Source of the DNA: an uncultured bacterium
GTDB lineage: Bacteria > Fidelibacterota > Marinisomatia > Marinisomatales > UBA1611
Direction of reading: 5' to 3'
DNA: 64,000 nt
Assembly (NCBI GenBank): GCA_965660855.1
Contig: CBFIBM010000001.1
Location: 128,001-192,000, forward strand
In this document: positions 3,058-62,979 of the stretch, piece by piece
How positions within the stretch are numbered: the first letter of the stretch is position 1
Layout of the letters: every line of letters starts with the position of its first letter
Position numbers and translations under genes: made by a program
Notes under the pieces: model-generated
What the model saw: the letters and a program-made list of their open reading frames with translations, nothing else
Databases searched by the model: none
What the model was told of the DNA's origin: nothing

Positions 3058-3085
3058 TATTAATCAAAATCCTTTTATTGGATTT

Positions 3086-4026: not shown

Positions 4027-4027
4027 A

Positions 4028-4426: not shown

Positions 4427-4433
4427 GTCTTTT

Positions 4434-4877: not shown

Positions 4878-5081
4878 CCTAGTTACGTTTAAATAAATAT
4901 TATTTTCTTAAAATATTATTTGTCAGCTTAAGATGTATTTAATATACGAAAAATAATATAATATGATAATATATATTAAATAAGTCCAATTTAATTGGTT
5001 ATTTTTATATTGAAAAATATTGGTTCTAATTTTAAAATAAGATGAAGTATTAATTTAAATTTTATAAATAGGGTTTAAGAT

Positions 5082-22445: not shown

Positions 22446-23189
22446 ATGAATTTTTTTTTATCATTTTTTTTATTTTTTATTTCAAATTTTAATAAATGTT
22501 TTGCGGATCCTATTACCTTTACGAAAGAAGCATATGCAGACTGGACGCTACCTGAAAATCAAGATAGAATAACTGAAGGTGTCTGGATCACGAGAAAGGA
22601 TAATCAGGGCCTTTTTAATATCTTTGTTGAGGAGAACTACTCAGGTCAGTCTCCTTTAAATACACTTTGGGCCCCGATGAAGACAATGGATGCTTCTCAA
22701 GAAGATTTTACATCATGGGTAGTAATGCATAATTCTGATCCTCAATCTACAATCGATGATACTGTTTCCTTACATATCCCTGAAGTAGGATTATATTTTG
22801 ATTTAGTACTAATCTCTTTTTCAGGCGGAAATAGTGGAGGTGGTTTTTCATATGCAAGAGAACAGATTTATCCTCAACACCTAACGAATGATGACAATTT
22901 TGATATACAACAATCATTTAGTTTAAAACAAAATTATCCTAACCCCTTTAATCCCTCTACAACATTAAATTATAATATAGAAAAGGACAGTTTTGTTAAA
23001 GTTGTCATTCATGATTTAAATGGAATTAAAGTTAGAACCCTTGTAAATGAATTTCAAACCTCTGGAAATAAAAATATTGTTTGGGATGGAACAGATATAG
23101 ATGGTAATGCTGTTTCTACTGGCATTTATTTTTACTCTTTAACTAATGGTGCTAGAGTTAAAACAAAAAAAATGTCTTTTGTTAAGTAA
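22446..23189 (+). CDS. Secreted protein: same uncharacterised domain + C-terminal sorting domain
   Basis: FTKEAYADW...QDRIT..VWITR...GGGFSY.R; NYPNPFNP. Confidence 0.8.
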   Translation: MNFFLSFFLFFISNFNKCFADPITFTKEAYADWTLPENQDRITEGVWITRKDNQGLFNIFVEENYSGQSPLNTLWAPMKTMDASQEDFTSWVVMHNSDPQSTIDDTVSLHIPEVGLYFDLVLISFSGGNSGGGFSYAREQIYPQHLTNDDNFDIQQSFSLKQNYPNPFNPSTTLNYNIEKDSFVKVVIHDLNGIKVRTLVNEFQTSGNKNIVWDGTDIDGNAVSTGIYFYSLTNGARVKTKKMSFVK

Positions 23190-24057
23190 TCGATTTTTAA
23201 CATTCCTTAAATTTAAATTAAACAAACAATATTTATTTTATACTGCTTTTTTAATATTACTTTTAAATCAGTCTATATTATCAGCAAATATTAATGATGA
23301 TTATAAACTGGTATGGAGTGATGAATTTAATTATGAAGGAATTATCAATCCTCAAAAGTGGTTCCATCAAACCATCATACCAAATGGTAAAAGTTGGTTT
23401 AATAATGAAATCCAACATTATACAAATAGAATTGATAATTCATATGTAAGCAATGGTTCTTTAAAAATTATCGTAAAGAAAGAAGCGTTCTATGACCAAA
23501 ATCAGCTAAAGTATTTTACATCAGCTAGAATTAATTCAAAATTTTCTTTTACCTATGGTAGAATCGAAATAAGAGCTAAATTACCAGTAGGAGTTGGAAT
23601 ATGGCCTGCAATCTGGATGCTGGGCCAAAATATTGATGAGAAAGGTGCTTATTGGGAAACAAAAGGATATGCTGAAAAATCATGGCCAGATTGTGGTGAA
23701 ATAGATATATTAGAACATTGGGGACATAATGAGAATTATGTTCAAAGTGCATTGCATACACCCTCGAGCTTTGGAGATACAAAAAATTTAGGTGGAAGAT
23801 ATCTATCAGATGTTCAAAATAAGTATAATACATATAGTCTTGATTGGTCAGTTGATTTCATGACTTTCAGTGTAAATGACACAATACACTATAAATATGC
23901 TCCTAAACAAAAAAATGATAAAACCTGGCCTTTCAATGAAAACCAATACCTAATATTAAATGTTGCTGTTGAACCTACAGTATCTTTGGATTTTATTAGT
24001 GATGAAATGGAAATTGATTACGTGAGAATATATCAATTCGAAAAAAATAAAGAGTAA
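23146..24057 (+). CDS. GH16 laminarinase-like glycoside hydrolase
   Basis: LVWSDEF, WPAIWMLG and catalytic EIDILE. True start probably somewhat downstream. Confidence 0.9.
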   Translation: MVLELKQKKCLLLSNRFLTFLKFKLNKQYLFYTAFLILLLNQSILSANINDDYKLVWSDEFNYEGIINPQKWFHQTIIPNGKSWFNNEIQHYTNRIDNSYVSNGSLKIIVKKEAFYDQNQLKYFTSARINSKFSFTYGRIEIRAKLPVGVGIWPAIWMLGQNIDEKGAYWETKGYAEKSWPDCGEIDILEHWGHNENYVQSALHTPSSFGDTKNLGGRYLSDVQNKYNTYSLDWSVDFMTFSVNDTIHYKYAPKQKNDKTWPFNENQYLILNVAVEPTVSLDFISDEMEIDYVRIYQFEKNKE

Positions 24058-27658: not shown

Positions 27659-30328
27659 ATGAAACATTTACTTAAATCAGTTTTGTTCTTTTCTGCCATT
27701 ATGTACGCAACATTAATAAATGTTCCCCAAGATTATAGTACTATCCAAGATGGTATAAATGCTGCTCAAGAGGGAGATACAGTTTTAATTGCTCAAGGGG
27801 TATACAATGAGAACTTAATTCTTGAAAAAGAAATTGTCTTAGCAAGTAATGCATTATTTGACAATCTTAACTCAGCTTGGATTTCAAATGATAACATTTC
27901 GCAAACCATCATTAGCGCTCCAGATATTCCAATAAACTCAAAGTATGGAAGTTGTTTAGTCGTACGTAATAATAATATCGAGCCAACCATTTATGGTTTA
28001 ACATTTTCAAATGGTCTAGGTACATCCATGAGATCAGTAGATTGTGTAAACACACCTGATAATAGTAGCAAAATGAAAGCTGGTGGCGCTATTTTAATTT
28101 TTCAGGCCTATCCTAAGATTCATTATAATAGATTTGTTGATAATGGTTTTAATGGGCCTCAAATAGGGGGTAACACAAATACAAATGCAATAAATGATGG
28201 TGGAGCAATTGCATTATATGATGATGAGGATATTGAATTTGATGAAGACAGATCTTCAGTAAACAATCATTCCAATAATTATAATAGAAATAGGCCAACA
28301 GTTGTTAGTCTACAAAATAACTATTTCTCAGGAAATAGTAGCTCTAATGGAGAAAATATATATACTGTAGGATACAATGGTACTATTGATGTAAGTAACA
28401 GTCATTTTGACAATATAGATTGTACAACAAATGAGGTTAGCGAATTTATTTTGACATCCTATAATGAAGATGCAGATTATGTCCAGGATAATATTTTTGG
28501 TTTATGCATTGAAGATAATACATTTTATGTTTCAGTTGATGGTAATGATTCCAATACTGGAAGTGAGTCAGATCCATTTTTAACAATTAATAAAGCCCTT
28601 GGTCGTGTAAAAACAACCGGTGAAACTACTATTGTTCGCGTACTTGAGGGGTATTACTCACCATCAACAACTGGAGAAAAATTTCCAGTAACATTACCTG
28701 ATAATGTACATTTAGTTGGAGATAATTCAGAAAATACTATTCTTGATGCTGAAGGAACTTTTGTTGATCAGAGAGGAGTTATTAGAATAGAGCATTCTCA
28801 AAATGTTTTGGTTGCAAATTTTACGATAACTGGAGGATTCGATGAAGAATCTGGTTGTCATGGAGGTGGTGGAATATCTCTTATCGTTCCGGATAATGAT
28901 CCAATGGGAGACATTGAAACAACGGATGCTATTTTTGAAAATCTAATTATTGAAGATAATTATGGTTATGTTGGTGGTGGTATAAATATATACAAGGTTC
29001 AAGGTGCTACATTTCAGGAGATAGAGGTAAGAAACAATAAATCTGCTTACCAGGGTGGAGGCGTTTTCCTTCAAAAAGGAATTGCTACATTTAAGAAAAT
29101 GGTGATTAATCAGAATGAAAATGGAGTGTCTGCTGCGCCAGGTAGGCAAGGTGGTGGAATGATGTTCGCTTTTTCTGGAGGTGTTCTTGAAGATATAATC
29201 ATAGATGAGAATAGAACTGGGGATAGTGGTGGTGGTCTATGGGTGAATAATGGTATTGGACTATCTCTAAACAGAGTAACCATCTCCGATAATATTAGTA
29301 CTTATAATGGTGCCGGTATGGTTTTAATGCAATGCGATGCACCTACTCAAATAATTAATACCACTATTGCTAATAATTTTCTAGCTGGTGACGCTAATGG
29401 TAATTTCGGTCAAGGCGATGGTTTGTGGGCAATGTTTTCTAGTGCTAATATTACAAATTCAATTTTTAATGGTAATTCTGGTACAGGAAATGAAGTAGTA
29501 AGGATGGGGGGAGATTATTTTAATCTTCAATATAGTTTAACTCAATCTGAAGTGGACTATAGTGATAATTCTATAGGAAATTTAGTCGGGGATCCACTTT
29601 TTATAGATGCCGAAAATGGTAATTACTCTCTGCAAGAGTCTTCATTGTGTATTGATAGTGGAATTGCCGATATTGACAGTGACGGAAATCAAGATATAGA
29701 TGATTTTTTTGGATTAGCTCCAGATATGGGGTCTCATGAATGGCTGCTCCAATCTGTAAGCAATGTGGCAATTTATGTTTCATCATCTAGCATTACACTT
29801 ACATGGGATCCACACCCAAACCCTGCTCTACAATATTATTCTGTGGAGTATTCAACTGATCCTGAATTTGAGAATGATGTTTTATCACAATATGGTACAG
29901 ATACTTATATTGTATTTGATGAGAATTTATTACAATATGATATTGAGTATTTCTTCAGAATCACAGCCTTTACTAATGTATGGAGTCTTTATTCTGATGT
30001 TTACTCTGGGTCTATAGAGTTTCTAGATTTGGATAAAGAACAATTACCTTTAATATTCTCATTAAAACAAAACTATCCAAACCCATTTAATCCCACTACT
30101 AACATTACGTATAGCATTCCTTCAGATAATCATGTCGAGGTTAATATCTATAACCTAATGGGAGAAAAAGTGAAAACATTAGCTAACGGTTTTCAAACTT
30201 CTGGAACTAAAACTGTAAAATGGGATGCTACTAACGAATATGGTGAACCAGTTAGTGCAGGGCTATACGCTTATACAATTCAAGCGGGTAGTTTTAATCA
30301 GACAAAGAAAATGCTATTACTAAAATAA
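27659..30328 (+). CDS. Secreted parallel beta-helix (DUF1565-like) protein with FN3 and C-terminal sorting domain
   Basis: VPQDYSTIQDGI, FYVS.DG.DSN.G....PF.TI.KAL, repeated GGG + N-ladder motifs; NYPNPFNP. Confidence 0.8.
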   Translation: MKHLLKSVLFFSAIMYATLINVPQDYSTIQDGINAAQEGDTVLIAQGVYNENLILEKEIVLASNALFDNLNSAWISNDNISQTIISAPDIPINSKYGSCLVVRNNNIEPTIYGLTFSNGLGTSMRSVDCVNTPDNSSKMKAGGAILIFQAYPKIHYNRFVDNGFNGPQIGGNTNTNAINDGGAIALYDDEDIEFDEDRSSVNNHSNNYNRNRPTVVSLQNNYFSGNSSSNGENIYTVGYNGTIDVSNSHFDNIDCTTNEVSEFILTSYNEDADYVQDNIFGLCIEDNTFYVSVDGNDSNTGSESDPFLTINKALGRVKTTGETTIVRVLEGYYSPSTTGEKFPVTLPDNVHLVGDNSENTILDAEGTFVDQRGVIRIEHSQNVLVANFTITGGFDEESGCHGGGGISLIVPDNDPMGDIETTDAIFENLIIEDNYGYVGGGINIYKVQGATFQEIEVRNNKSAYQGGGVFLQKGIATFKKMVINQNENGVSAAPGRQGGGMMFAFSGGVLEDIIIDENRTGDSGGGLWVNNGIGLSLNRVTISDNISTYNGAGMVLMQCDAPTQIINTTIANNFLAGDANGNFGQGDGLWAMFSSANITNSIFNGNSGTGNEVVRMGGDYFNLQYSLTQSEVDYSDNSIGNLVGDPLFIDAENGNYSLQESSLCIDSGIADIDSDGNQDIDDFFGLAPDMGSHEWLLQSVSNVAIYVSSSSITLTWDPHPNPALQYYSVEYSTDPEFENDVLSQYGTDTYIVFDENLLQYDIEYFFRITAFTNVWSLYSDVYSGSIEFLDLDKEQLPLIFSLKQNYPNPFNPTTNITYSIPSDNHVEVNIYNLMGEKVKTLANGFQTSGTKTVKWDATNEYGEPVSAGLYAYTIQAGSFNQTKKMLLLK

Positions 30329-37001: not shown

Positions 37002-40000
37002 ATGAGAAAAACCTTAACTATAACTCTTGCTTCCCTTATCTCAATTTGTTTTTCACAAATTATTAATGTAGGTAGTGGAAGTTACACATTAAATTTTCCA
37101 GGAACTGATGAAGCGGGGAGAAATGGTTATCCATCTGGAGAACCACAAATAACTGGTCCAGCATCATCAAAGCATCCTCCGACTAATGACTGGTGGTCAG
37201 CTCTTATAAAAAATGATCATGTAAGTAACCTTTTCAATTACCCGATGGCATTAAAGACTACAAATCAAGGATTGGTAACAAGTTACATACCATGGGGTGT
37301 GTATGATGATCAAGAGCCCATTATAGTTGGTGTTTCTGGGTTGAATTCCAGCAGGTCTAATATTTATGATTTTACAGATTGGACGGTAACCATGCAATGG
37401 AGTAATAACGGTCATAATTTTAGAGCTACTTCAGGGATTGGTATGCCATTTGTATATTATACTAAAGGGAATAGTGATGTAGCTGAGATAACTATTAATC
37501 TAGGTGATATTGTGGTTGATGATGAAAAAATTCTGGTATCTAATGCAAGAAATGATGCAGATTTTATAATTTTTGCTCCTATCGGAAGTAGTTGGGATCA
37601 GAATGGAACAAAATTTACATCAGATTTAAATGGAGAAAATTATTGGTCGCTTGTTATGATTCCTCAATCAGAAGATAATTTAAATTATTTTGCTCAAGAA
37701 TATCAAAAATATGCTTATGTATTTCCAACCAATACGATTACAAATTGGTCTTACAATCAAAGTACGTCAGAATTAATAACAGAATATTCAATTGAAGTCG
37801 ATATAAAAGAAGGATCTTTTAATCATGTTCTTCAAGGATTACTACCACATCAATGGAATAATTTAGACTCTGATTCACCAACTCCTAATGAAATAAGTTA
37901 TTCATCAGTGAGGGGAGAGTTGAAAATGCTTGATGGTAATTTTTTTAAAACAAAAAATATTTTCAAAGGAATACTACCAACTTTACCTTATTTAGCTAAT
38001 TACAGTTCTGGATTTAATCCTGCAGAGTTAGATAATAAAATTTCACAAATTCAGAATGATCAATTAGCAACTTGGACGGATTCCTATAATGAAGGACAGG
38101 TGATGAATAGATTAGTTCAAACTGCTAGGATTGCTGATCAATCTGGTGATTTTGAAGCTCGCGATATAATGGTAGAGACCATAAAAGATAGGCTAGAAGA
38201 TTGGCTTACTGCTAGTAATTCAGAGGTCGCATTCTTATTCTATTACAACTCAACATGGTCAACTTTGATTGGATATCCTGCTGGACACGGACAAGATAAC
38301 AATATAAATGATCATCATTTTCACTGGGGATATTTTATTCATGCCGCCTCTTTCATAGAGCAAATGCAACCAGGTTGGGCCCTTGAATGGGGTGATATGG
38401 TAAATGAATTGGTCTGGGATGCTGCATCTCCTTTTAGAGAGGATCCAAAATATCCCTATCTTAGAAGTTTTAGTCCATATTCTGGTCATTGTTGGGCCAA
38501 TGGGTTTGCAACATTTCCTCAAGGTAATGATCAAGAATCTACCTCTGAAAGCATGCAATTTAATTCCGCTTTAATACATTGGGGGTCATTAACTGAAAAT
38601 AATATAATTCGAGATTTAGGAATATATCTTTACGTAACTGAACAGACTGCAGTTGAGGAATATTGGTTTGATATGTATGAAAGAAATCTAAGTCCATCAC
38701 ATCCATACAGCTTAGTATCCAGAGTTTGGGGAAACTCATACGATAATGGTACATTTTGGACTAATGATATTGCAGCTTCGTACGGCATCGAATTATATCC
38801 CATTCATGGCGGTTCTCTCTATTTAGCTCACAACAGCTCATATGTAGAAACTTTGTGGGAAGAAATTTCAACCAATACTGGTATTTTAAACAATGAAGTA
38901 AATCCTAATTTATGGCATGATGTATACTGGAAGTATCTATCATTTATTGATCCAGAGACTGCAATAGAATTATACAACTCAAACCCTGATAGAGAATTGA
39001 AATTTGGTATATCAGATGCGCAGACGTATTACTGGTTACATGGGATGAATGCAGTTGGAGCATTGAGACCTGAAATTTATTCTAACTATCCAATTTCGGC
39101 TTCTTTTGATAAAGAAGGTGTATTCACCTATGTTGCTCATAATTATTCTGATGAAGAGATAACGGTTACTTTTTCTGATGGATTTCAATTAGATGTTCCA
39201 CCAAACCAAATGTCTACAAATCGTGGATCTGATATTTCTGGAATTATATCATCAGATTTCTCCCAAGCTTATGTAAATGGATCAATTAATGTAACTATTG
39301 TGTCTGATTATGAAAATATTTCAAGAGTTGAAATTTATGATGGTGAAAACCTAGCTGGAGAAACTGGAAGTTATCCATTTGAATACCGTGTTTCAAACCT
39401 ATCTCCGGGTCTACATAATATCTATGCAAAAATATTTAGTGGAAATGATTTTGGACTTACGAACATTATTAATATTCAGGTTGGTGAACAAAGTTCTTAC
39501 ACAAATGATTTTAATATAATACCAGGAATCATTGAAGCAGGGAAATATGATACTTTTGAGGGTAGTGTTGGGCAGGGTGTTACATATTTAGATATGTCTC
39601 AAGAAAATTATGGAGGATTTAGACCTCAAGAATATATAGATAGTGAGTATCGTAATAATGAAGGTGCTACTCTAGGATGGATTGATGGTGGAGAGTGGTC
39701 AGAATATAGCATTAAAGTAGAAAATGCTGGATTTTATGATATTGCATTCAGACTAGCCTCTGGAAATCCCAATGGTGGTGGTCCTTTTCATTTAGAAGTT
39801 AATAGTGAAAGATTACATGACGATATCTACATAGAATCAACTGGTGATTGGTATAACTGGATAACATACAATATAGGAGATATTCCTCTAAACCAAGGGG
39901 AGCATACACTAAGATTGGTTATGTCAAATGGTGAATTTAATATTGGTAAAATGCAATTCAGTTTTAGCGATTCTTTAAATTTTTCACCACCTGTAGCTAA

Positions 40001-41147
40001 TGCAGGTGAAGACATTGTTGTTATACTTCCAAATCAAAATGCATTTTTAGACGGATCACTTTCTTTTGATAATGATAATGATAATCTTATTTATAACTGG
40101 GCTCAAATTTACGGACCTTCGTTGGTAGCTTTTTCTAATAATTCATCAATGGATACAGATATTTCTAATTTGGAAGAGGGAGTGTATAAAATTAAGTTGA
40201 CAGTAACAGATGGCTCTTATGATTCAAGTGATTTTTTATTAGTTTTTGTTTCTGCGACATCTAATCTTGCTCCAACTGTGGTACTCGAATCTCCAAGTTC
40301 AAATTCATCATTTTATTTCGGATCAACAATATCCTTAATCGCATCAGCTTCAGATATTGATGGTGAAATTACATTGGTCGAATTTTTTAATTTTGAAAAT
40401 AAAATAGGTGAAGATTATACTCCTCCTTATCAATATGATTGGCTAGATGCAAATATTGGTGTTCAAAATATTACTGCTCATGCAACTGATGATGGTGGTC
40501 TTACTTCAATATCATCTACTATAAATATAGAAGTTTTAGAAGCACCTTTATGTACTGGTGGCCCTGATAACGGGCATTATACATATGAATTTTCGGATGA
40601 TTCTGATAATCCGACAATTACATTTATTCCTAGTGCACCGCATGTTGGTAATCCAACATGTATATTATATTATTCAACTGGTGGTACCCCACCAGGATAC
40701 AATGTTACGCCAAATGTCCCCTATCAAATTAATGCAGCAGAAGGAGATCAAATCCAATTTTATTATACATATTCTTATAATGGTTTAGATCAAAATACTT
40801 CACAAAATATGCATTCCTACATTGTCGGAAGTTGTAACACTCTTGAAAATGAACATGAAAATAATATCCCAGATCAATTTTCAATAAAAGCTTATCCAAA
40901 TCCCTTCAATCCTTCTATTAACATTGATTATTCATTAAATGAATTAACCTTTATTGACATATCCATTTATGATATAAAAGGACAATTAATTAAAAATTTA
41001 GTAAATGAAACTAAATCACCCGGTTTTTATCATTGTTCTTGGGATTCAAAAAATAATATTGGCAATAGAGTTTCGGCAGGGCTTTATCTAATAAATACTA
41101 GGACTAAACACACCTTGGAAACAAAAAAGATAATTTTAGTAAAATAA
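37002..41147 (+). CDS. GH81 endo-1,3-beta-glucanase with Ig-like, CBM6, PKD, probable CBM56-like and C-terminal sorting domains
   Basis: PTNDWWS, NDHHFHWGY, GNDQESTSE; CBM6-like GWIDGGEW.EY; PVANAG.D (PKD); AYPNPFNP. Confidence 0.9.
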   Translation: MRKTLTITLASLISICFSQIINVGSGSYTLNFPGTDEAGRNGYPSGEPQITGPASSKHPPTNDWWSALIKNDHVSNLFNYPMALKTTNQGLVTSYIPWGVYDDQEPIIVGVSGLNSSRSNIYDFTDWTVTMQWSNNGHNFRATSGIGMPFVYYTKGNSDVAEITINLGDIVVDDEKILVSNARNDADFIIFAPIGSSWDQNGTKFTSDLNGENYWSLVMIPQSEDNLNYFAQEYQKYAYVFPTNTITNWSYNQSTSELITEYSIEVDIKEGSFNHVLQGLLPHQWNNLDSDSPTPNEISYSSVRGELKMLDGNFFKTKNIFKGILPTLPYLANYSSGFNPAELDNKISQIQNDQLATWTDSYNEGQVMNRLVQTARIADQSGDFEARDIMVETIKDRLEDWLTASNSEVAFLFYYNSTWSTLIGYPAGHGQDNNINDHHFHWGYFIHAASFIEQMQPGWALEWGDMVNELVWDAASPFREDPKYPYLRSFSPYSGHCWANGFATFPQGNDQESTSESMQFNSALIHWGSLTENNIIRDLGIYLYVTEQTAVEEYWFDMYERNLSPSHPYSLVSRVWGNSYDNGTFWTNDIAASYGIELYPIHGGSLYLAHNSSYVETLWEEISTNTGILNNEVNPNLWHDVYWKYLSFIDPETAIELYNSNPDRELKFGISDAQTYYWLHGMNAVGALRPEIYSNYPISASFDKEGVFTYVAHNYSDEEITVTFSDGFQLDVPPNQMSTNRGSDISGIISSDFSQAYVNGSINVTIVSDYENISRVEIYDGENLAGETGSYPFEYRVSNLSPGLHNIYAKIFSGNDFGLTNIINIQVGEQSSYTNDFNIIPGIIEAGKYDTFEGSVGQGVTYLDMSQENYGGFRPQEYIDSEYRNNEGATLGWIDGGEWSEYSIKVENAGFYDIAFRLASGNPNGGGPFHLEVNSERLHDDIYIESTGDWYNWITYNIGDIPLNQGEHTLRLVMSNGEFNIGKMQFSFSDSLNFSPPVANAGEDIVVILPNQNAFLDGSLSFDNDNDNLIYNWAQIYGPSLVAFSNNSSMDTDISNLEEGVYKIKLTVTDGSYDSSDFLLVFVSATSNLAPTVVLESPSSNSSFYFGSTISLIASASDIDGEITLVEFFNFENKIGEDYTPPYQYDWLDANIGVQNITAHATDDGGLTSISSTINIEVLEAPLCTGGPDNGHYTYEFSDDSDNPTITFIPSAPHVGNPTCILYYSTGGTPPGYNVTPNVPYQINAAEGDQIQFYYTYSYNGLDQNTSQNMHSYIVGSCNTLENEHENNIPDQFSIKAYPNPFNPSINIDYSLNELTFIDISIYDIKGQLIKNLVNETKSPGFYHCSWDSKNNIGNRVSAGLYLINTRTKHTLETKKIILVK

Positions 41148-50465: not shown

Positions 50466-50984
50466 TTGAAAAACATACTTTTAATTTTTTTCATATTTTT
50501 ATCACTGATAAATGCAGAATCGACATTCGATAAATTTAAGCATGAGGAAATTATTAAAGTAATTTTAACTGATTATTTTAAGAATGTGGATGAAAAGAAT
50601 ATTGAAGGTATACTAGATCATTTAACGTCTGAGCTTATCATGAATTTTGGTTCAGATGGAGTTACTCGTATTAAATCGAAAACAGAATTTTACCCTATTT
50701 TTGAATCCTGGAGCAAATCTAGTAAGGGTCAATTTAGTTTTACAAGGATTGATTCTATTAACATTCAAGAAACTCATATTGTAAAAAATTATACTGCTGT
50801 AGCAGATGTTACATATACTAGAATGGATAAAAATGGAAATCCTATCCGAACAGAAAGGTCTTTATATCACTTTGTGCGTGGTACAGGCTATTACGGTAAG
50901 CCATTGAAATTCATTTGGGAAGTGATGATAAAATGGCTAAGGCCTTGGAAGATTTATATGATTTCCAATATAGCATTAGATTGA
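50466..50984 (+). CDS. Secreted NTF2/SnoaL-like protein, copy 1
   Basis: Signal peptide; DYF..VDEKN.E...; DVTY.R...RSLY.FV...WKIYM. Clear paralog of 51644..52114. Confidence 0.65.
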   Translation: MKNILLIFFIFLSLINAESTFDKFKHEEIIKVILTDYFKNVDEKNIEGILDHLTSELIMNFGSDGVTRIKSKTEFYPIFESWSKSSKGQFSFTRIDSINIQETHIVKNYTAVADVTYTRMDKNGNPIRTERSLYHFVRGTGYYGKPLKFIWEVMIKWLRPWKIYMISNIALD

Positions 50985-50991
50985 AAACATT

Positions 50992-51567
50992 TTAAAAATC
51001 TATTTTAAGAGCCCTATCTTCATTATTAATGTTATCTTTTTTAATATATGAAAAAGATTTATGCTTGATTTGTTCCTTATCAAAATATTCTGTTAATTTT
51101 CTTAAATATAAGTCCTCCATTCCTTCTTCGTATCCAGATTCTTTGTGAATTATTTTACCTTGTTTATCTATTAATAAAAAAGTTGGGTAACCTATAACTT
51201 TAAACTGTTTTGCAATTTTTGAAGAAGGGTCAACAGCAACATCAAACTTATATTTTCTCTTTTTTATATATGGCCTGACTTGATTAATGATATTAGGTTT
51301 ATTAACATTTACAGCAAGAACTGTTAATCCTGCATCTTTAAATTCTTTATTTAGCTGATTTAAATAGCCTAACTGGCGTTCACAATATGTTCACCATGTA
51401 GTCCAAAAATTAATAATCATCGGACCATCTGAATGAAAATCAGAAAGCTTTGCGTACTCTCCATCTACCATTCGAATTCTGGAGTTTCCAATCTTTTTTC
51501 CTTGAAGGATTATTGGTGAGAGGAGGTAGGATAGAAGTAGTATGGGTATAAATAACTTATTTTTCAT
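50992..51567 (-). CDS. Exported TlpA/thioredoxin-fold selenoprotein, copy 1 (UxxC; Sec at codon 59)
   Basis: Not in the ORF track. ATG 51567, signal/anchor, GPMIINFWTTW-TGA(51391-51393)-TYCERQLGYL...VLAVNV...GYPTFLLIDKQGKI, TAA at 50992; 191 aa with readthrough. Confidence 0.88.
51361..51390 (-). promoter_or_regulatory. Candidate bacterial SECIS hairpin, copy 1
   Basis: UGAA-C-GCC-[AGUUA]-GGC-UA-UUUA; the loop starts 16 nt after the UGA and has G at loop position 2. Confidence 0.7.
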
Positions 51568-51643
51568 GTACCTAATTTTATGATAATCAAATGTAAATAT
51601 TAAATAAAATTTTCCAAATTTTTTTCTTAAATTGGATTAAAAA

Positions 51644-52114
51644 TTGAACCTTATGAAAACTCATATTATATTATTTTTAACTTTTTGCATTAATCATAAT
51701 TTTATTTTTGGAATTGATAAACCGAAGGATGATAAAAAAATTATCAGTTCATCCCTTATAGATTATTTTTCTAAAGTTGACGAAAAAAATCTTGAAAGCA
51801 TGTTAAATTATATTGAATTACCTTTTATTTTAAACTTTGAATCAAAAGAACCACTCCATCTAAAAAATGAAGACGAATTCTTTGAGGTATTTGAACTTTG
51901 GAGCAAGTCTGAGAAAGCAAATTTCTTAAAAACTGTATTAGATTCTGTATCTTACACTGAAATTCATAAGGATTTTATGTGGGTTGGGGATGTTACCTAC
52001 TCTAGAGTAAATATAAAAAGTGGGATTAAAGAGACAAATAGATCACTTTATTATTTTGTGAAGAAGAAACATGACTGGAAGATTTATATGGTAAGCAGTG
52101 TTGATTTTGATTAA
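51644..52114 (+). CDS. Secreted NTF2/SnoaL-like protein, copy 2
   Basis: DYFSKVDEKNLE...FELWSKS.K..F...DS...DVTYSR...RSLYYFV...WKIYM. Start may be ATG 51653. Confidence 0.65.
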   Translation: MNLMKTHIILFLTFCINHNFIFGIDKPKDDKKIISSSLIDYFSKVDEKNLESMLNYIELPFILNFESKEPLHLKNEDEFFEVFELWSKSEKANFLKTVLDSVSYTEIHKDFMWVGDVTYSRVNIKSGIKETNRSLYYFVKKKHDWKIYMVSSVDFD

Positions 52115-52133
52115 AAAATAATTAGTAGTGTTT

Positions 52134-52700
52134 TTAAAAGTCTATATTAATTGCTTCTTTTTTGTTATCATTCTTTCTCTCATATTCAAAAGCTTCATAT
52201 TCGATATTCTCATTGGTAAAGTAAGATTTGAGAGCTTCTAAATATTCTTCTTCCGTACCATCTCCATAACCTGCACTTTTATGTATTACTTCGCCATTTT
52301 TGTCTATAAGATAAAATGTAGGGTAACCTTTTACATCAAATTGTTTGGCTAATTTAGAAGTTGGATCCAAGGATACATCAAATTTATACTTTCTTTTATT
52401 TATGTATGGCCTTACTTGATTTACTATTTGAGGTTTATTTGAATTGATGGTAAGAACTTTTAAACCAGTCTTACTAAATTTTGAATTAATTTGATCTAAA
52501 TAGCCTAACTGGCGTTCACAATTTGGTCACCACGTTGTCCAGAAATTAATGATCATTGGCCCATCTTGGTTAAAGTCAGACAACTTTGCATATTCTCCGT
52601 TTAACATTTTGATCCTTGCAGTGGGAATTTTATTGTCCTTAAGTGCAAGGCCAACAAAAAAAGACAGGAATACTAATGAAGAAAGAATATGTTTTTTCAT
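52134..52700 (-). CDS. Exported TlpA/thioredoxin-fold selenoprotein, copy 2 (UxxC; Sec at codon 58)
   Basis: The track shows only the 78-aa tail. Full frame from ATG 52700: MKKHILSS...GPMIINFWTTW-TGA(52527-52529)-PNCERQLGYL...GYPTFYLIDKNG; 188 aa. Confidence 0.88.
52497..52526 (-). promoter_or_regulatory. Candidate bacterial SECIS hairpin, copy 2
   Basis: 24 nt identical to copy 1 (TGTGAACGCCAGTTAGGCTATTTA) at the same distance from the UGA. Confidence 0.7.
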
Positions 52701-52820: not shown

Positions 52821-54029
52821 ATGGATTTGTGTATCAGTCTAATCAGAAATATTGTAAAGCATAATATACTAGCTTTACTGTTTATTATAATGCACGATCA
52901 AACCTTTGGATGTCGTTTATGGTCAATTTGTACTAAAAATAATAAAAGTATTTCTCAATTGCCATATGAAGAAAAAGACTTGGTTTATAATCAATTAAAC
53001 TCATTTTTTTTACAATCAAATATGATGAATAATGGATGGTCGTTATTAGACTATCCTGATAGTACATCTAATTTTATAACACCGATAATTAGATCTGAAA
53101 CCAAAGCTTATATTGATTCAGTACGATATTGGGCAGTAGTAGACTCTTTATTACTCAATGGTTCTGGTAAAATTGGAATGGGGCATTTACGACTTGCCTC
53201 TTCTGGAATTAATAGTATCCCAAATCCACATCCTTGGATGTTTTATAGAAACCAAAAATCTTACGCAATGATGCATAATGGAACTATTGATAAAAACGTA
53301 TTATACAATCTTATTACAAACAATGGCTCCGATATCACTTGGTTGCAAAATCACGAGCCGGAAACTTTTGATGGTTCTGATTGGCAGAGTGATGGTTGGG
53401 TTCAGGTGGTTGATTCAGAATTACTAATGCTTTTTATCATGCAGCAAGTTGAAAATGAAAATGATATATATTTAGGACTACAATTAGCACTTTCAAATTT
53501 GATGTCTCAAGGGGTTGTGGCTCATCAATTAAATTTAATTCTTTCCGATGGGAGCTTTCTTTACTGTTTTGGTGGTAGCAATGGTCTCTCTTATGCGGAA
53601 TCTTCTGATCATTATGCTGTTATGACGCAGCCTGAAAACAGTGGTCTATTAACTTGGACTGGATTAAATAATGGTGAGTTAGTAGTTATCAGTGATAATG
53701 GTTTAGAAAAATATCCAGATTTTATACAATTAGCCAATCAAGATGGTGTCCTCATACCTCGAAATCCTATTATTATGACACCAGCATTTCCTAATCCATT
53801 TAATAGTTCTTTACAGTTCTCATTTGAAAATATTCAAGATACCCCAATTATAAATATATCTATATACAATATACTTGGAAATCTTGTTGATACCATATCT
53901 AAAGAAAATATTAGAGAAAATGATTTCATTAGATGGAGTCCGCCCTTGGGAACAGCATCTGGAACCTATTATATACATGCAAAAATTAAGAATTCTAAAT
54001 TAAATCAGAAGATTTTGTTTATAAAATGA
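52821..54029 (+). CDS. Secreted class II glutamine amidotransferase (Ntn hydrolase, EgtC/YafJ-like) with C-terminal sorting domain
   Basis: Signal-like N-terminus, then CRLW (Cys at 52911), GHLRLASSG..NPHP, MHNGTI, VDSE; AFPNPFN. Confidence 0.8.
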   Translation: MDLCISLIRNIVKHNILALLFIIMHDQTFGCRLWSICTKNNKSISQLPYEEKDLVYNQLNSFFLQSNMMNNGWSLLDYPDSTSNFITPIIRSETKAYIDSVRYWAVVDSLLLNGSGKIGMGHLRLASSGINSIPNPHPWMFYRNQKSYAMMHNGTIDKNVLYNLITNNGSDITWLQNHEPETFDGSDWQSDGWVQVVDSELLMLFIMQQVENENDIYLGLQLALSNLMSQGVVAHQLNLILSDGSFLYCFGGSNGLSYAESSDHYAVMTQPENSGLLTWTGLNNGELVVISDNGLEKYPDFIQLANQDGVLIPRNPIIMTPAFPNPFNSSLQFSFENIQDTPIINISIYNILGNLVDTISKENIRENDFIRWSPPLGTASGTYYIHAKIKNSKLNQKILFIK

Positions 54030-56754: not shown

Positions 56755-59700
56755 ATGCAAAGAGCGATAATAACATTGCTCATGTTGTCTTTTGGCGTAA
56801 GTTTGTATGCAAATGATACAGCACCTCGTCAAAAGGGCGATTCTTTTCAGTATGGATTACCTACTTACAAAAGTCCTGAGAATAGAACGGAAGAATATGA
56901 GCTATACATGGTTGATACCTATGGTGATGGTTGGGACGGTTCCACCTTAGATCTTAACATGAATGGAGTGTCAGTTGCGACTGGATTGACTGTTGATGGA
57001 GAATCTAACAGTTTTTACTTTAATGCTGACGATTATGATTATTTAACCACTGGATTTACCATCAGTACTAGCTGGGCTAGTGAGTTATACTATGGTATCT
57101 ACGATTCAGAAGGCTACCTTCTTTATGATGGTTATGGAAATAGTGCTGAAGTTGATATCAGCTCTCATCCAGACATGACCACGCAATGGACAATAGATTC
57201 CAGTGAAGAAAATGTATTTCATAATCCTAGTTTTGAAGCAGGCATTGCAACCTGGGATAGACATCCTGACTATGATTGGGCAATTGCAACTACAGGAGAG
57301 GGAATTTATAACTCTGATGCAACATTTACTGCGTACAGTGGGGATAATTCTTTTAAAATGTGGGCTTCATGGACCGGGCTTGAAAATAATGTTTTCAAAG
57401 TTTTTGAAGGAGATATTGCAGCTCAATTAGCGGGTGAAACTTTCACTATTTCAGCTCACATGATGAGTCATGCTGATGATTTGTTAGGTGAAGGAACTCA
57501 CGCTAAATTAGTTGCAAAATATTTTGGACCTGGACCAAATGGCGATGGATCGAACTGGTGGGAGACATTTATGTTCATGGATGAGTCCGAATATTTAGTG
57601 GGTTCATTAGCTACAGCAACAGAGTGGACAGAATACTCTCTAACAACCACTATACCTGAAGGGGCATATCACATTGAAATTGGCTTTACTCTTAAAAAAG
57701 ATGCTGATGGAGGTGGCTCTGTGTATGTGGATAACCTCATTGGAGATTGGGTAGAACCAGTTGAGGTTATTGAAAATGTTTATTTTTCAGAATATGCTGA
57801 AGGTTCAAGTAATAATAAATATTTAGAAATTTTTAACGGTACCGGAGCGGCGATTGATTTAGCAGATTTCGTTGTTTTAGGTAACTACAATGGTAACGGA
57901 TGGTCAGAAACAATTCCATTTGCAGTTGGTACAATCGTAGAAGCAGGTGATGTTTATGTTATCGCAAATAGCTCAGCAGATGAAGCTATTTTAGCGGAAG
58001 CAGACGTCGCATTTGGTTATGGAGCCTACGATCCAGAAGCTGGCACGGCATATGTCACCTCATTTAATGGTGATGATGTAAGAGCACTAGCGATGGCAGG
58101 AGATCCTTCTCTTATTGTGGATCAAATTGGTACTCTAGATTTTGATGGAGATGGTATTGAAGGTGAAGGAAATGAAGATGATCCAGGCAGTGGTTTTGAT
58201 GCTGCAGGTGTTTCTGATGCAACAAAAGATCATACATTAACTAGAAAGCCAGGTATGCTTGGTGGAAATATGGGCAACTGGAGTCAGTCTGCCGGAACCG
58301 ATGCTGAAACCAGTGAATATGTCGTCCTAGATCAAAATGATTGGACTAGCTTAGGTTCTCACAGCAATGAGGTTGTAGAAGTTTGTGATTTCACGGAAGT
58401 AACACTTAATATCGCAGATTCTTACGGTGATGGTTGGAATGGAAACATCCTCACTGTTGGTGATCTTAACTTTACATTGGATGGAGTTGCCGATGATGGT
58501 TCTTCTGCCAGTTTTGATTTGTGTCTAGAAGATGGTGCTTACGCAGTAACCTGTGGAGGTGGAAGCTATCTATCAGAAGTAAGCTGGGAAATGTTAGCCG
58601 CAGATGGCACGGTTCTTCTTGCTGGTGGTGCGCCATATGAAGGATTCCTTCAAATTGGTGAAGTAGTAGATGTGCTAGGTTGTACAGATCCAGAAGCATT
58701 AAATTATGATGAAACAGCAACACTCGACGATGGTACTTGTGTTTATGCAGGTGAGGATTGTGCAACGGCATTAGTCGCTGCAGCCGGTTCAAATGAAGCA
58801 CCAAGTGCTCCATTCTGGTATACTTATACTGCAACGTTAACTGGAACTGCAACAATTTCTTCTGTTGGTGGTGGAGTTGATACTCAAGTTTACGGTTATA
58901 CTGGGGCATGTGATGCACTTGTAGAAGTTGGATTTGGTGATGATGAGGGTGGGGGACCTGAGTGGTCATCCATCATGGTCCTTGATGTAGTAGAGGGTGA
59001 ATCTTACTATATAAATTGGACTGATTATTGGTCACCATCTGGTTTTGTATGGACCTTAGAGGAAGCACTTTATCCTGTAACTCCACAAAACCTTACAGCT
59101 GAAGCTGGAATGGATAACGTATATCTAGCCTGGGATGCTGCTGAACCTGTTGGACGATCATTCGTTGAGATACAAAATGATAGACAAGCAAGAGCTGAAT
59201 ATCAAGCTGAGAAAAAAGCGAGTCTTTATCCAAATAGATCAACAGAAGTACATCTTAATAGATATAGCATTAATCCAGATTATGATCCTGAATTCAATAA
59301 CACCAGAACTAATAATGTAGTGATTAATTTAGGTGGTGGAACTTGGGATTCAGAGATTTCATGGAATATCACCAATTCAGAGGGAACTGTGGTTGCCGAA
59401 GGTGGTGCCCCAATAGAGAACTTAGAATTGGTCCTTGAAGATGGTACATATAACTTTAATGGTTTTGATTCCTATGGTGATGGATGGAATGGAAGTGCTG
59501 TGACTGCGACAAATGCAACACAAGTATTTCTTTTCTGGTGGTTAGATACCGGCTCAGAGGGCACTGCAGAGTTTGCAGTTAACGATGGTGCTGCAAATTT
59601 ATATCTTTCCAATATAAATTATGATCAAGATACTCAAATGATGAGTGTTGATGTGAACAACGATGGTACACTATGGGCCTATGGTGGCGACGTAGCTCCG

Positions 59701-62700
59701 TTTATTGGATCTGTTCCAAATGGAGATTGTCAAGAACCTGGTTCAATTGGACAATCTGTTCCACAGCCACTTGCGCCTGGGTCGTCTTATAATTTTGCAT
59801 TTGATATCGATTTAGTAGATATTCTTGGATATGGTGTGCATCCAGTAGGTGCTATGGTTGATTGGTCTTGTGCAGTCCCAGAACTGGATGAGAATGATAA
59901 CACTATTGGGGGAGAGATAACTCTTGTTGATCCATTAGATGGTATTACCTTCTCAGTTTACAGAGAGGATGCTGCTTCCGGTACATATGCTTTAGTTGTA
60001 TCAGGTCTTGAATCTGAAATGTTTTTGGATGAATCAGTAGTCGGCGGTACGGGTTATTGTTATTATGTGACTCAAACAGCTGCAGAAGTTGAATCTGGTG
60101 CATCTAATATTGCATGTGCAACTCCATATGGTTCAGATGCTTTTCCAGCTCCTACAGCATTAGCAGGTGAAGCGGATGGATATGATGTGATGCTTTCTTG
60201 GACAGCTCCTGATTTAACAGGCTGGGAGCCTCCTAGGCACAATTCACGATTTGCTCCTTCCATGAACAAACCGATGACTCATACCCCTTCCAATACAGAA
60301 CATACAACACCTCCAGCTACAAGACAGGGTGGAGATACTTTTGAAACTGCTACAGTAATAGATGCACTACCTTACGTAGATAATGGATCTACAGTAGGAC
60401 TTGCTGCAGACTATGGACCATATGCAGACTTAACCACTTTAGTTTGTGAGTTTGGAGATACTTACTATAGTGCAACCTCGACTGCAGCAGGTCCGGATGC
60501 AGTGTATTCTATAGACCTCGCGGAAGATGCATTCGTAAATATTTCCCTGTGTGGGTCAGGTTACGACACTGGTCTTGGAGTGTTTAGCTCCGATGGAGTT
60601 CTTGTTGCAGCAAATGATGATTTCTGTTCATTTCAATCAGAGGTTACATGTTCTATGCCTGCTGGAATGTATTATATTGTTGTCAGTGGTTGGGGAACGG
60701 ATGCAGGAGATTATGTGCTTAACGTAGGTACTGTTGACCCTCCATCACCAGTTGCTGGATATAATGTATACAGAGATGGAGAGATGGTTGGTTATGTGGA
60801 AGGTGTAGATGAAACATCTTTTTCAGAATTTGTATACAGCCCTGAGATGCCTGAAGGTGGAACATATACATACGCAGTTTCTGCTTATTATGATGTTCAA
60901 GATGCTTCTTCAGTGCTTTCTGACCCTGTGGATGTAACAACTACTGCTCCACCATTTGAGTGTGTTGCACCAACAAATCTAACAGCTGAAAATCAAGGCA
61001 ACGATGTTATGTTGAGTTGGGATGGACCAGCAGGTGGGCCTACATGGTTTACTCACTTTGATGGAACTGTAAACAGCGGAGTTGGTACAGCGACAGGATT
61101 GTTTAGCTTAGAAGCTGCTGTAAAGTTTGGTCCAGAAACGACCTTAGACTTAATGGGTCTCTCATTAACACAGGTTGCTTTTATGACAAGCGATGTAACA
61201 GCTTTATTTAAAGTCATGATTTATGACCCAGTTTCAATGTTACCGGTTGATTCAACTGATGTTATTGATCCATCAACCTTAATTGTTGGTGATTGGAATA
61301 TTGTTGATTTACCTAATCCAATAGCCTTAGATGGTTCTGAGGTGATGTTTGGTTACAAGGTAACTGTGACTGCAGAGGGAACATATCCTGCTTCAATGGA
61401 TTTACAGTCTGATCATAATGGTATGGATAACTTAATTGCGGGTTTTGGATCACCAATGCAAAGTATGCTTGATGCATACGCTATTGATGGAGGTTGGGCA
61501 ATTGCTGGTTATGCAGATTATGGTCAAGGTCAATCCATTGTTTCATTAGATCCTCCAGTTTTTGACAATGTCATTAACCCTGGAGATTTTGATGTTAGGC
61601 ATCTAGCGAATCCGTTAGAAGTCTCGTTACCTGTTGAACAGATGAATCGTGCTTTATTGGGTTATCATGTTTACAGAAATGATACCACTATTGCAACTGT
61701 ACCACCTTCAGAAACATCATATGATGACTACGATGCTCCATGGGGAACTGTAGAGTATTATGTTACTGCAGAGTATGATGATACGGAAGATTGTGGTGAG
61801 TCTGATCCTTCAAATGTTGTTTCTATCGATCTAGCAAATAACCCACCTTCTGCGGTGAATTTAATTGCGCCACCAAATGGTGCAACCTTCACTATTAATG
61901 AAGGTAATATGGATCAGGGCAATATGTTTGTATGGTCACCTTCTAGTGATGCAGATAATGATCCTATCGAGTATTACCTAGGTGTAGAGACTGAAGTTTT
62001 GGGAGATACCTTGGATGAGTGGTTTCCAGAAAACGCACTGCAAAACGGTGACTTTGAAGATGGAACAGATCATTGGTTCTTCTACCCTCCTGAAGCAACA
62101 AACACCTCATATGATGAGGATATGGAAATGCTCATGATTGGTGGACTGAATAGTGGAGATAATACTGAAAATAATGTGTACCAAGAATGGCCAGGAGATG
62201 CCTTACCTGTAGGTACTCACTTTGAAGTATATGGTGAGGTTATGTCCCCAGCTGATGATTTCATTGCTGGAGATAACCACTTTGTATTGTTTGCTAAGTA
62301 TTTTGATTCTAACTGGGGAATGATTCATATGGATCATTCTGAACCAATGAGCGCACAAAATGCAACAGCAGATATGTATCATGAACTGGAATTTGAATCT
62401 ATAGTTCCAGAAGGTGTTGCTGTAATGCAAGTCGGTGCCATGTTTGTACAAGCTACACCGGATCACGGTGGTATGGTAGGAATAGATGAAATATACATGC
62501 ATGTTCCAATGACTGTTACTGGCTTTGAAATATCAAACAGTATGTTTGGTGAATTGATGCTAGAAACTCAAGTTACTAACTTGACTGTGGAATGGGACGT
62601 ATGGGCATTTGATGGTTATGATCCAACTCCATCAACGGGTTCACGTACATTCACGGTGGATGCTAGTGATCTTCTGTCTGTGAATAACATTGCGTTACCA

Positions 62701-62979
62701 ACATCATACGCATTGCATAACAACTACCCTAACCCATTTAACCCAGTGACAAATATCTTGTATGATATTCCTGAGTTAACTGATGTTAAGTTAGAAATCT
62801 TTAATGTCATGGGACAGCGTGTCAGAACTCTTGCAGAGGGTAAGCACGAAGCCGGACGTTATCAGATTGTTTGGAATGCAACCAATGATATTGGTGAAAG
62901 TCTATCTTCTGGTATGTATATATATCGTATACAAGCCGGAGACTTTGTAAGTGTGAAAAAACTTGTCTTAATGAAGTAA
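56755..62979 (+). CDS. Giant (2074 aa) acidic secreted multidomain protein: CBM-like x2, lamin-tail domain, D(S/T)YGDGW modules x3, CARDB-like, PPC-like, split FN3 x3, C-terminal sorting domain
   Basis: GGAGG RBS; signal peptide; lamin-tail motif FSEYAEGSSNNKYLEI; NYPNPFNP C-terminus; no catalytic motif recognised. Confidence 0.85.
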   Translation: MQRAIITLLMLSFGVSLYANDTAPRQKGDSFQYGLPTYKSPENRTEEYELYMVDTYGDGWDGSTLDLNMNGVSVATGLTVDGESNSFYFNADDYDYLTTGFTISTSWASELYYGIYDSEGYLLYDGYGNSAEVDISSHPDMTTQWTIDSSEENVFHNPSFEAGIATWDRHPDYDWAIATTGEGIYNSDATFTAYSGDNSFKMWASWTGLENNVFKVFEGDIAAQLAGETFTISAHMMSHADDLLGEGTHAKLVAKYFGPGPNGDGSNWWETFMFMDESEYLVGSLATATEWTEYSLTTTIPEGAYHIEIGFTLKKDADGGGSVYVDNLIGDWVEPVEVIENVYFSEYAEGSSNNKYLEIFNGTGAAIDLADFVVLGNYNGNGWSETIPFAVGTIVEAGDVYVIANSSADEAILAEADVAFGYGAYDPEAGTAYVTSFNGDDVRALAMAGDPSLIVDQIGTLDFDGDGIEGEGNEDDPGSGFDAAGVSDATKDHTLTRKPGMLGGNMGNWSQSAGTDAETSEYVVLDQNDWTSLGSHSNEVVEVCDFTEVTLNIADSYGDGWNGNILTVGDLNFTLDGVADDGSSASFDLCLEDGAYAVTCGGGSYLSEVSWEMLAADGTVLLAGGAPYEGFLQIGEVVDVLGCTDPEALNYDETATLDDGTCVYAGEDCATALVAAAGSNEAPSAPFWYTYTATLTGTATISSVGGGVDTQVYGYTGACDALVEVGFGDDEGGGPEWSSIMVLDVVEGESYYINWTDYWSPSGFVWTLEEALYPVTPQNLTAEAGMDNVYLAWDAAEPVGRSFVEIQNDRQARAEYQAEKKASLYPNRSTEVHLNRYSINPDYDPEFNNTRTNNVVINLGGGTWDSEISWNITNSEGTVVAEGGAPIENLELVLEDGTYNFNGFDSYGDGWNGSAVTATNATQVFLFWWLDTGSEGTAEFAVNDGAANLYLSNINYDQDTQMMSVDVNNDGTLWAYGGDVAPFIGSVPNGDCQEPGSIGQSVPQPLAPGSSYNFAFDIDLVDILGYGVHPVGAMVDWSCAVPELDENDNTIGGEITLVDPLDGITFSVYREDAASGTYALVVSGLESEMFLDESVVGGTGYCYYVTQTAAEVESGASNIACATPYGSDAFPAPTALAGEADGYDVMLSWTAPDLTGWEPPRHNSRFAPSMNKPMTHTPSNTEHTTPPATRQGGDTFETATVIDALPYVDNGSTVGLAADYGPYADLTTLVCEFGDTYYSATSTAAGPDAVYSIDLAEDAFVNISLCGSGYDTGLGVFSSDGVLVAANDDFCSFQSEVTCSMPAGMYYIVVSGWGTDAGDYVLNVGTVDPPSPVAGYNVYRDGEMVGYVEGVDETSFSEFVYSPEMPEGGTYTYAVSAYYDVQDASSVLSDPVDVTTTAPPFECVAPTNLTAENQGNDVMLSWDGPAGGPTWFTHFDGTVNSGVGTATGLFSLEAAVKFGPETTLDLMGLSLTQVAFMTSDVTALFKVMIYDPVSMLPVDSTDVIDPSTLIVGDWNIVDLPNPIALDGSEVMFGYKVTVTAEGTYPASMDLQSDHNGMDNLIAGFGSPMQSMLDAYAIDGGWAIAGYADYGQGQSIVSLDPPVFDNVINPGDFDVRHLANPLEVSLPVEQMNRALLGYHVYRNDTTIATVPPSETSYDDYDAPWGTVEYYVTAEYDDTEDCGESDPSNVVSIDLANNPPSAVNLIAPPNGATFTINEGNMDQGNMFVWSPSSDADNDPIEYYLGVETEVLGDTLDEWFPENALQNGDFEDGTDHWFFYPPEATNTSYDEDMEMLMIGGLNSGDNTENNVYQEWPGDALPVGTHFEVYGEVMSPADDFIAGDNHFVLFAKYFDSNWGMIHMDHSEPMSAQNATADMYHELEFESIVPEGVAVMQVGAMFVQATPDHGGMVGIDEIYMHVPMTVTGFEISNSMFGELMLETQVTNLTVEWDVWAFDGYDPTPSTGSRTFTVDASDLLSVNNIALPTSYALHNNYPNPFNPVTNILYDIPELTDVKLEIFNVMGQRVRTLAEGKHEAGRYQIVWNATNDIGESLSSGMYIYRIQAGDFVSVKKLVLMK

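Follow-up and report, generated by a model that had tools for sequence, protein, structure and literature searches.

The stretch analysed here, called the window throughout, comprises 64,000 nt of contig CBFIBM010000001.1 (positions 128,001 to 192,000, assembly GCA_965660855.1) from an uncultured bacterium of the Fidelibacterota. It is AT-rich (31.4% GC), and the relatives found were metagenome-assembled genomes (MAGs) of Marinimicrobia/Neomarinimicrobiota. Two paralogous genes on its minus strand, A and B (Table 1), encode thioredoxin (Trx)-like proteins. Each is interrupted by one in-frame TGA, and each TGA is followed by a short hairpin, considered here as a candidate selenocysteine (Sec) insertion sequence (SECIS). 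When read with translation table 11, each gene is cut by its single TGA into a 57-58-aa open reading frame (ORF) and a remainder. Pfam domains run across the TGA in both genes (PF00578, E = 2.9e-24 and 1.3e-22; PF08534, E = 8e-21 and 2.6e-20), and the paralogs share 57% protein identity and 68% overall nucleotide identity. In paralog A, the residue at the TGA (U) falls on the first of the two Cys in the CxxC motif of ResA, WGTWCKPC (4nmu_A, E = 1.8e-20), and the best solved relatives are the thiol-disulfide oxidoreductases ResA, StoA and TlpA. The subfamily is marked by FWTTWUxxCERQL, a length of about 190 aa and a C-terminal extension ending in IDF. Both proteins are probably exported, as judged by eye from their hydrophobic leader.

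To follow the TGA beyond the window, 11 gene copies were compared as DNA, the two window copies (winA and winB) and nine from eight Marinimicrobia/Neomarinimicrobiota MAG loci (L001-L008), together with 55 protein homologs from database matches (P0001-P0055). The TGA is retained in all 11 copies read as DNA. A UGA that stays in place of the nucleophilic Cys in a CxxC redox motif is the usual hallmark by which selenoproteins are recognised. At this position the protein homologs show 49 W, one L (P0019) and no Cys, the five others being fragments that start past the TGA. The W is explained by a gene caller which assumes code 4 and writes TGA as Trp. The Trx-like family is thus systematically mis-annotated in public databases, with Trp at the proposed Sec position in 49 of 50 motif-bearing homologs and five more entries truncated.

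Taken at face value, these Trp entries could also mean that TGA is reassigned to a sense codon (code 4 or 25) in this organism. We consider this very improbable. Within the motif, Trp codons are all TGG. TGA ends 4 of the 41 long ORFs in the window; for PanB and a protein with a type IX secretion system (T9SS) tail, the TGA stop coincides with the end of their Pfam models, and a sense reading of those terminal TGAs would add extensions of just 8-36 codons. Furthermore, a scan of the window and the eight loci (117 kb) for internal TGAs with at least 40 open codons on either side returned 42 sites, of which none but the 11 in Trx-like genes is credible. The rest are off-frame or antisense, the conserved ones among them being antisense to htpG, so that no other credible hidden selenoprotein was found among these sites. 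Still more remote is the idea that A and B are pseudogenes carrying a nonsense mutation, as their splitting under table 11 might suggest: the same TGA is present in 11/11 copies, down to 54% protein identity, and the sequence past it is conserved to the C-terminus with many synonymous changes.

An alignment of 60 nt from the TGA of the 11 copies was then folded, positions being counted from the U of UGA. RNAalifold returned a 19-nt hairpin, ((.((((.....)))).)), at nt 13-31, and the same hairpin was found in a 200-nt alignment. The innermost pair 19:25 is C:G in 11/11 copies. At 18:26 the window copies have C:G, against G:C in the nine others; pair 17:27 is G:C in 10 and U:A in one of the L008 copies (L008a); and pair 16:28 is A:U in nine and broken (C.U) in the two window copies. 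Below a purine (A or G) at column 15, which faces A29 in all copies, pair 14:30 is A:U in eight copies and G:C in L004 and L005, with one N, and pair 13:31 is G:C in eight and G:U in three. Overall, 96.9% of the cells are paired, and in 500 shuffles neither the pairing nor the covariation score came up to the observed value. With the 3' strand shifted by 1-3 columns, pairing fell to 20-55%.

Compensatory double changes occurred in three of the six pairs, independently of one another: one in the window lineage, one in L004/L005 and one in L008a. The first couples Arg CGC with Gly GGC versus Arg AGG with Ala GCC; the second couples Tyr UAU with Glu GAA versus Tyr UAC with Gly GGA; and the third, in L008a, couples Met AUG with Ala GCA. 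The first two thus link a synonymous codon switch to an amino-acid replacement. That a synonymous Arg codon tracks residue 67, in particular, is beyond what selection on the protein can explain. The first-pass annotation of this DNA, made from the letters alone, had proposed covariation in orthologs as a check, and these data provide it. They support the conclusion that selection at the RNA level maintains a short hairpin just 3' of the two UGA codons.

The pairs lie within the helix that follows CxxC, so that the pairing is written into the codons, CGC going with Gly GGC and AGG with Ala GCC; this accounts for the rare GC-rich codons and for most of the synonymous sites that appear frozen between the paralogs. 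In agreement with this, the five core pairs were formed in all 10 sequences evaluated (L007, which contains an N, was omitted), whereas with each sequence's own protein and the family codon usage outside the hairpin they would be expected by chance with P = 0.04-0.06 (0.39 for L008a). With Gly67 (GGN), Arg64 must be CGY, so that its C faces U28 and the fourth upper pair is impossible (P of six pairs = 0). The Gln codon is CAG in 11/11 copies, which makes A20 and G21 of the loop invariant; the loop reads AGUUR in 10 copies and AGGCU in one (L008a).

Other pairings around the TGA did not hold. The GCC/GGC core and the AGUUA loop described in the first-pass annotation are those of the conserved hairpin, but relatives do not share its UGAA/UUUA lower stem: in that register 12:33 pairs in 4/11 copies, 14:31 in 5/11 and 15:30 in 8/10, the conserved register being 13:31, 14:30 and 16:28. 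In the window itself this lower stem brought no added stability (-2.2 kcal/mol, compared with -3.9 kcal/mol for the core alone). An extension of the stem (8-11:32-35) was also discarded, 10:33 being broken in 5/11 copies with no compensatory change. Finally, a 5-bp UGAUC/GAUCA helix around the UGA, seen in the 200-nt alignment, is mostly invariant, with one compensatory change (winA) and three broken cells at 9:64, and was rejected as well.

The strands of that helix are UGAUC, upstream of the UGA, and the complementary GAUCA past the hairpin, in both genes (Table 1). At 9:64, seven copies have C:G and winA has U:A (Ile ATT with Asn AAT), the pair being broken in the three mentioned, and the Ile codon in the UGAUC site is ATC in 8/11 copies. 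Given the usual extent of a ribosome footprint, the two strands would lie on either side of a ribosome decoding the UGA. This complementarity could be due to chance, from GATC palindromes, or reflect a structure of the free mRNA.

Comparison of the window paralogs codon by codon confirmed that CERQLGYL, just after the UGA, is encoded by 24 identical nt, that the preceding MIINFWTTW carries four synonymous differences (I51, F54, T56 and T57), and that the identical codons include GC-rich CGC and GGC, both rare in this window (2.9% of Arg and 7.5% of Gly codons in its long ORFs; CAG makes up 20.7% of Gln codons). The identical run extends over 26 nt, the next longest being 9 nt. Elsewhere in the paralogs, 43 of 86 degenerate same-residue codon pairs are identical; eight out of eight therefore has P of about 0.004 and is beyond chance. 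The description of these sites as frozen is accurate for the two window paralogs but not for the family, where paired wobbles co-vary and unpaired ones (columns 12, 15, 24 and 33) vary freely. Synonymous diversity of the eight codons across the family is only mildly lower (0.37 versus 0.47). Full identity of the window paralogs thus exceeds what the structure needs.

Alternatively, the 24-26-nt identity could stem from a short tract of gene conversion, or from chance added to amino-acid conservation, with no RNA function needed. The module duplication that produced A and B is older than the split from L008 (see below), yet both window copies have the minority C:G variant of pair 18:26 and are identical at the four unpaired wobbles that vary in the family. 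On a protein tree of 58 rows, from which three chimeric or fragmentary matches and five C-terminal fragments were omitted, the Gly variant falls into two separate, well-supported clades, which fit two origins of the C:G variant or its transfer between the paralogs by a short gene-conversion tract. As a full explanation, conversion or chance seems improbable to us, since it gives no account of orthologs keeping the same pairs through double changes in different letters and leaves the rare CGC, GGC and CAG codons unexplained. Conversion could add to the identity of the window copies without taking the place of a selected hairpin as explanation.

The nearest homologs with Cys at the TGA position, P0057 and P0064 (40-42% identity; FWTTWCPNCPKQMGYL), read CPNCPKQMGYL in this region, the TGA aligning with the Cys of FWTTWCPNC in P0057. 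Cys is also found there in 71 of 71 motif-bearing single-domain representatives. As deduced from the protein sequences of P0057 and P0064, pairs 18:26, 14:30 and 13:31 are impossible with any codon choice, because Lys (AAR) would have to pair with Gly (GGN), and Pro (CCN) with Tyr/Leu. The first-pass annotation had asked whether Cys-encoding orthologs share the nucleotide conservation. Compared at the protein level, no Cys-encoding ortholog within the Trx-like family was present among the sampled homologs, and the nearest Cys homologs cannot form the hairpin. As far as protein sequences tell, the hairpin thus appears to go along with the UGA.

Taken together, these results make it probable that A and B, both ResA/TlpA-like, encode Sec and carry a SECIS candidate of minimal size that is supported by covariation. 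Both genes would encode exported ResA/TlpA-type thiol-disulfide oxidoreductases in which the nucleophilic residue is Sec (UxxC), inserted at UGA. The presumed signal, 9 nt past the UGA, would be the 19-nt hairpin with its 2-bp lower stem, purine.A mismatch, G+C-rich upper stem of 3-4 bp and 5-nt AG(U/G) loop. A SECIS sits at the mRNA entrance of the ribosome while the UGA is in the A site, and the start of this hairpin 9 nt after the UGA resembles that geometry. In that state it would stand at the entrance, and SelB carrying Sec-tRNA(Sec) would bind its loop and outcompete release factor 2. Of the SECIS proposed in the first-pass annotation, what survives is a short RNA-selected hairpin with the position, loop size and loop G of a SECIS; the lower-stem register, frozen sites across the family and the use as a probe do not.

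Several observations weigh against this interpretation. The 19-nt consensus fold is weak, between -2.8 and -6.6 kcal/mol in the 11 copies (-2.8 in the window copies), and the 3-bp core of the window copies alone (-3.9 kcal/mol, z about 0) is thermodynamically unremarkable, their upper stem being limited to 3 bp by the C.U at 16:28. Folding of single sequences over 39-nt and 74-nt stretches gave no signal (z from -0.8 to +1.0). The hairpin also misses the cut-off of -7.5 kcal/mol in the bacterial SECIS (bSECIS) model described below, a value reached by just 6/11 copies even with 45 nt folded. Such a minimum free energy (MFE) threshold is a search heuristic. The covariation comes from 11 sequences and about three independent events, and relatedness among them can inflate the shuffle statistics. 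Neither selA, selB, selD nor tRNA-Sec was found in the 64-kb window, which contains no tRNAs at all; Sec-machinery Pfam domains were absent from the 47 window ORFs scanned; and Rfam at gathering threshold gave no match over the window. When E values up to 10 were allowed around the genes, Rfam returned three unrelated weak matches only. The papers searched do not report Sec decoding in Marinimicrobia, and SAR406 single-cell genomes occur in them only in a listing of 'orphan SelD' organisms (PMC5029168, Table 1).

The same points leave room for a hairpin that is selected for another role than that of a SECIS bound by SelB. Such a hairpin could be a local pause or an anti-termination element raising near-cognate read-through of UGA (by Trp or Cys), or tune translation or mRNA stability. 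The structure is very small and weak, and the window, devoid of Sec machinery, comes from a phylum for which that one table lists 'orphan SelD'. We nevertheless find this explanation unlikely. The UGA coincides exactly with the catalytic Cys of CxxC, and a Trp in that place would abolish the active site. SelB recognition is in keeping with the invariant AG(U/G) loop, with the 16-nt spacing and with the interval shared with the Escherichia coli minimal SECIS. In addition, Trx-fold UxxC families form the bulk of the marine selenoproteome (PMC2398784, Table 2; PMC13188914, table), and marine metagenomes contain them in abundance (PMC2398784, Table 2).

We also examined whether the motif could serve as a stand-alone probe for hidden selenoproteins, as had been suggested. 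A descriptor that combined a TGA, a 9-nt spacer, the five pairs and a loop starting with AG gave four matches in the window, the two true ones and two antisense to long genes, where Markov-simulated windows expect 1.46. With two more in the loci, none of the four extra matches lies at a read-through TGA. A covariance model run over the 117 kb recovered only the 11 training copies, the best other match (13.8 bits) being inside typA. About 1.5 chance matches per 64 kb make the motif unspecific for use on its own. It is by itself too small for selenoprotein finding, and ORF and homology filters would be needed.

Each Trx-like gene is paired with a convergent partner of 156-172 aa that bears a leader (Table 1). 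The partner genes had no match in Pfam or NCBIfam; an Atlas lead points to an NTF2/SnoaL-like protein (DUF6841, score 0.95, 171 shared features). The module of Trx-like gene and convergent partner is a tandem duplicate which adjoins yaaA (peroxide stress) and htpG. The gene order in L008 is the same as in the window (T9SS protein, Trx, NTF2-like, Trx, NTF2-like, YaaA, HtpG; L008 partners at 3302-3817 and 4569-5090, both on the minus strand), so the duplication is old and was present in the ancestor common with L008. The Trx-like proteins themselves have a tail of about 45 residues past the thioredoxin fold, found in genes A and B and in P0057. In the family this tail closes with a conserved I/V-D-F at the C-terminus (I-E-F in the Cys homolog), a terminal motif that may be a recognition or sorting signal.

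Table 1. Coordinates of the features discussed, as positions in the window
Feature	Position	Strand	Description
Paralog A	50992-51567	-	191 codons; ResA/TlpA-like (AhpC-TSA/Redoxin); motif W-U-T-Y-C; hydrophobic N-terminal leader
In-frame TGA of paralog A	51391-51393	-	Proposed Sec codon
Identical codons, A	51361-51384		CERQLGYL
Hairpin A, SECIS candidate	51363-51381	-	G13:U31, A14:U30, G17:C27, C18:G26, C19:G25; loop AGUUA at 51370-51374
UGAUC/GAUCA, gene A	51415-51419/51356-51360		Upstream of the UGA/past the hairpin
C-terminal tail of gene A	50992-51130	-	45 codons
Paralog B	52134-52700	-	188 codons; ResA/TlpA-like; motif W-U-P-N-C
In-frame TGA of paralog B	52527-52529	-	Proposed Sec codon
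Identical codons, B	52497-52520		CERQLGYL
Hairpin B, SECIS candidate	52499-52517	-	Identical in every letter to hairpin A
UGAUC/GAUCA, gene B	52551-52555/52492-52496		Upstream of the UGA/past the hairpin
NTF2-like candidate gene 1	50466-50984	+	172 aa; leader; convergent with paralog A
NTF2-like candidate gene 2	51644-52114	+	156 aa; paralog of the 50466-50984 gene; convergent with paralog B
Proteins with T9SS C-terminal sorting domains	18866-20206, 22446-23189, 27659-30328, 37002-41147, 52821-54029, 56755-62979	+	Six proteins
GH16 gene	23146-24057		
Run of short ORFs	2776-4462	+	93, 158, 169 and 144 aa
ORF with 5-hmdU DNA kinase helical domain match	14214-15095	-	293 aa

Elsewhere in the window, T9SS sorting tails are common. 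The six proteins with T9SS C-terminal sorting domains often have a FlgD_ig domain and include GH18, GH81 and one protein of 2074 aa; with the GH16 gene, this set has the appearance of a secretome for glycan degradation. Several short ORFs that overlap in part follow one another at 2776-4462. The second matches only the C-terminal half of the EpsH exosortase model (profile positions 115-252 of 254), and the region may hold an exosortase gene that is split or frameshifted. The ORF of 293 aa has a match to the helical domain of 5-hmdU DNA kinase (PF18723, E = 3.1e-19), a domain associated with phage DNA hypermodification systems.

A wider proposal, which we put forward tentatively and hold to be possible rather than probable, is that Marinimicrobia (SAR406) use a distinct, ultra-compact class of SECIS. 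Such elements would be 19 nt long, with energies of -3 to -7 kcal/mol, an AG(U/G) loop and the minimum distance from UGA, below the thresholds of SECIS-first predictors, and their RNA pairing would dictate residues Gly/Ala67, Arg/Met64 and Glu/Gly63. If so, the selenoproteome of the phylum would be under-counted, and SelB would recognise a smaller signal than any natural one described. That Trx-fold UxxC selenoproteins exist and that bacterial SECIS hairpins lie inside ORFs is already well known and opens no new question. Confirmation would provide a natural SECIS that does not exceed the engineered minimal element of E. coli in size, and this in a marine phylum that is both abundant and uncultured, as well as a concrete case of an RNA signal inside an ORF that limits codon and amino-acid choice beside an active site. 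Energy-threshold SECIS searches would miss the Trx-like family.

The hairpin can be compared first with the bSECIS model. According to PMC13188914 (legend of Figure 2), the model has a loop of 3-9 nt, an upper stem of 4-16 bp, a G at loop position 1 or 2, as a rule with G or U after it, a UGA-loop spacing of 16-37 nt and an MFE of -7.5 kcal/mol or lower. The same source mentions that some putative bSECIS elements fail the model. Like the elements modelled, our hairpin lies in the ORF right 3' of the in-frame UGA (nt 13-31 in 11/11 copies) and has a 5-nt loop with G second, then U or G. The distance from UGA to loop is 16 nt (columns 4-19), at the lower limit. The upper stem has the required 4 bp in 9/11 copies and falls short, with 3 bp, in both window copies. 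A position just 3' of the UGA and a G early in the loop had been put forward in the first-pass annotation as SECIS-like traits; the invariant A20 and G21 and the spacing bear this out.

The E. coli fdhF minimal SECIS is a close counterpart. As described in the review PMC8659212, it is a 17-nt upper stem-loop at positions 15-31, 11 nt past the UGA, with a bulged U17 and loop G23 U24. Set beside that description, our hairpin is likewise in the ORF, occupies nearly the same interval (13-31) and has a small loop with G then U. In both, the 5' strand leaves one base unpaired 6 nt ahead of the loop G (R15/G21 here, U17/G23 in E. coli). In contrast, our hairpin begins 2 nt nearer the UGA (9 nt versus 11 nt), its unpaired purine faces an A in a 1x1 mismatch instead of forming a bulged U, and it has no conserved lower stem back to the UGA and a 5-nt loop with an invariant first A.

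At the protein level, A and B resemble ResA, TlpA and StoA (PDB 4nmu, 1st9 and 1jfu; E = 1.8e-20 to 3e-10) in their W-C-x-x-C-E context and N-terminal leader or anchor, and differ from them by a putative Sec in place of Cys and by the extra C-terminal tail of about 45 aa. They are ResA-like and not members of the NCBIfam ResA subfamily, with 95.7 and 85.8 bits against a cut-off of 170 bits for NF002854. Two Sec-containing NCBIfam families, NF041054 (WAxxUGC_long) and NF053656 (redoxin_TUGYCR), share the ResA-like fold and a Sec in the redox motif, but the motif is another one and the scores are far below the cut-offs (38.9 versus 300 and 24.7 versus 100, respectively). The marine 'Prx-like 1' (pfam00578, UxxC) and 'Thiol-disulfide isomerase-like' (cd02966) selenoproteins, as described in PMC2398784 (Table 2) and PMC13188914 (table), have the same AhpC-TSA/Redoxin domain. 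As in these marine UxxC selenoproteins, Sec would replace the first Cys of CxxC in A and B, and the source is marine, a likeness drawn from those family descriptions.

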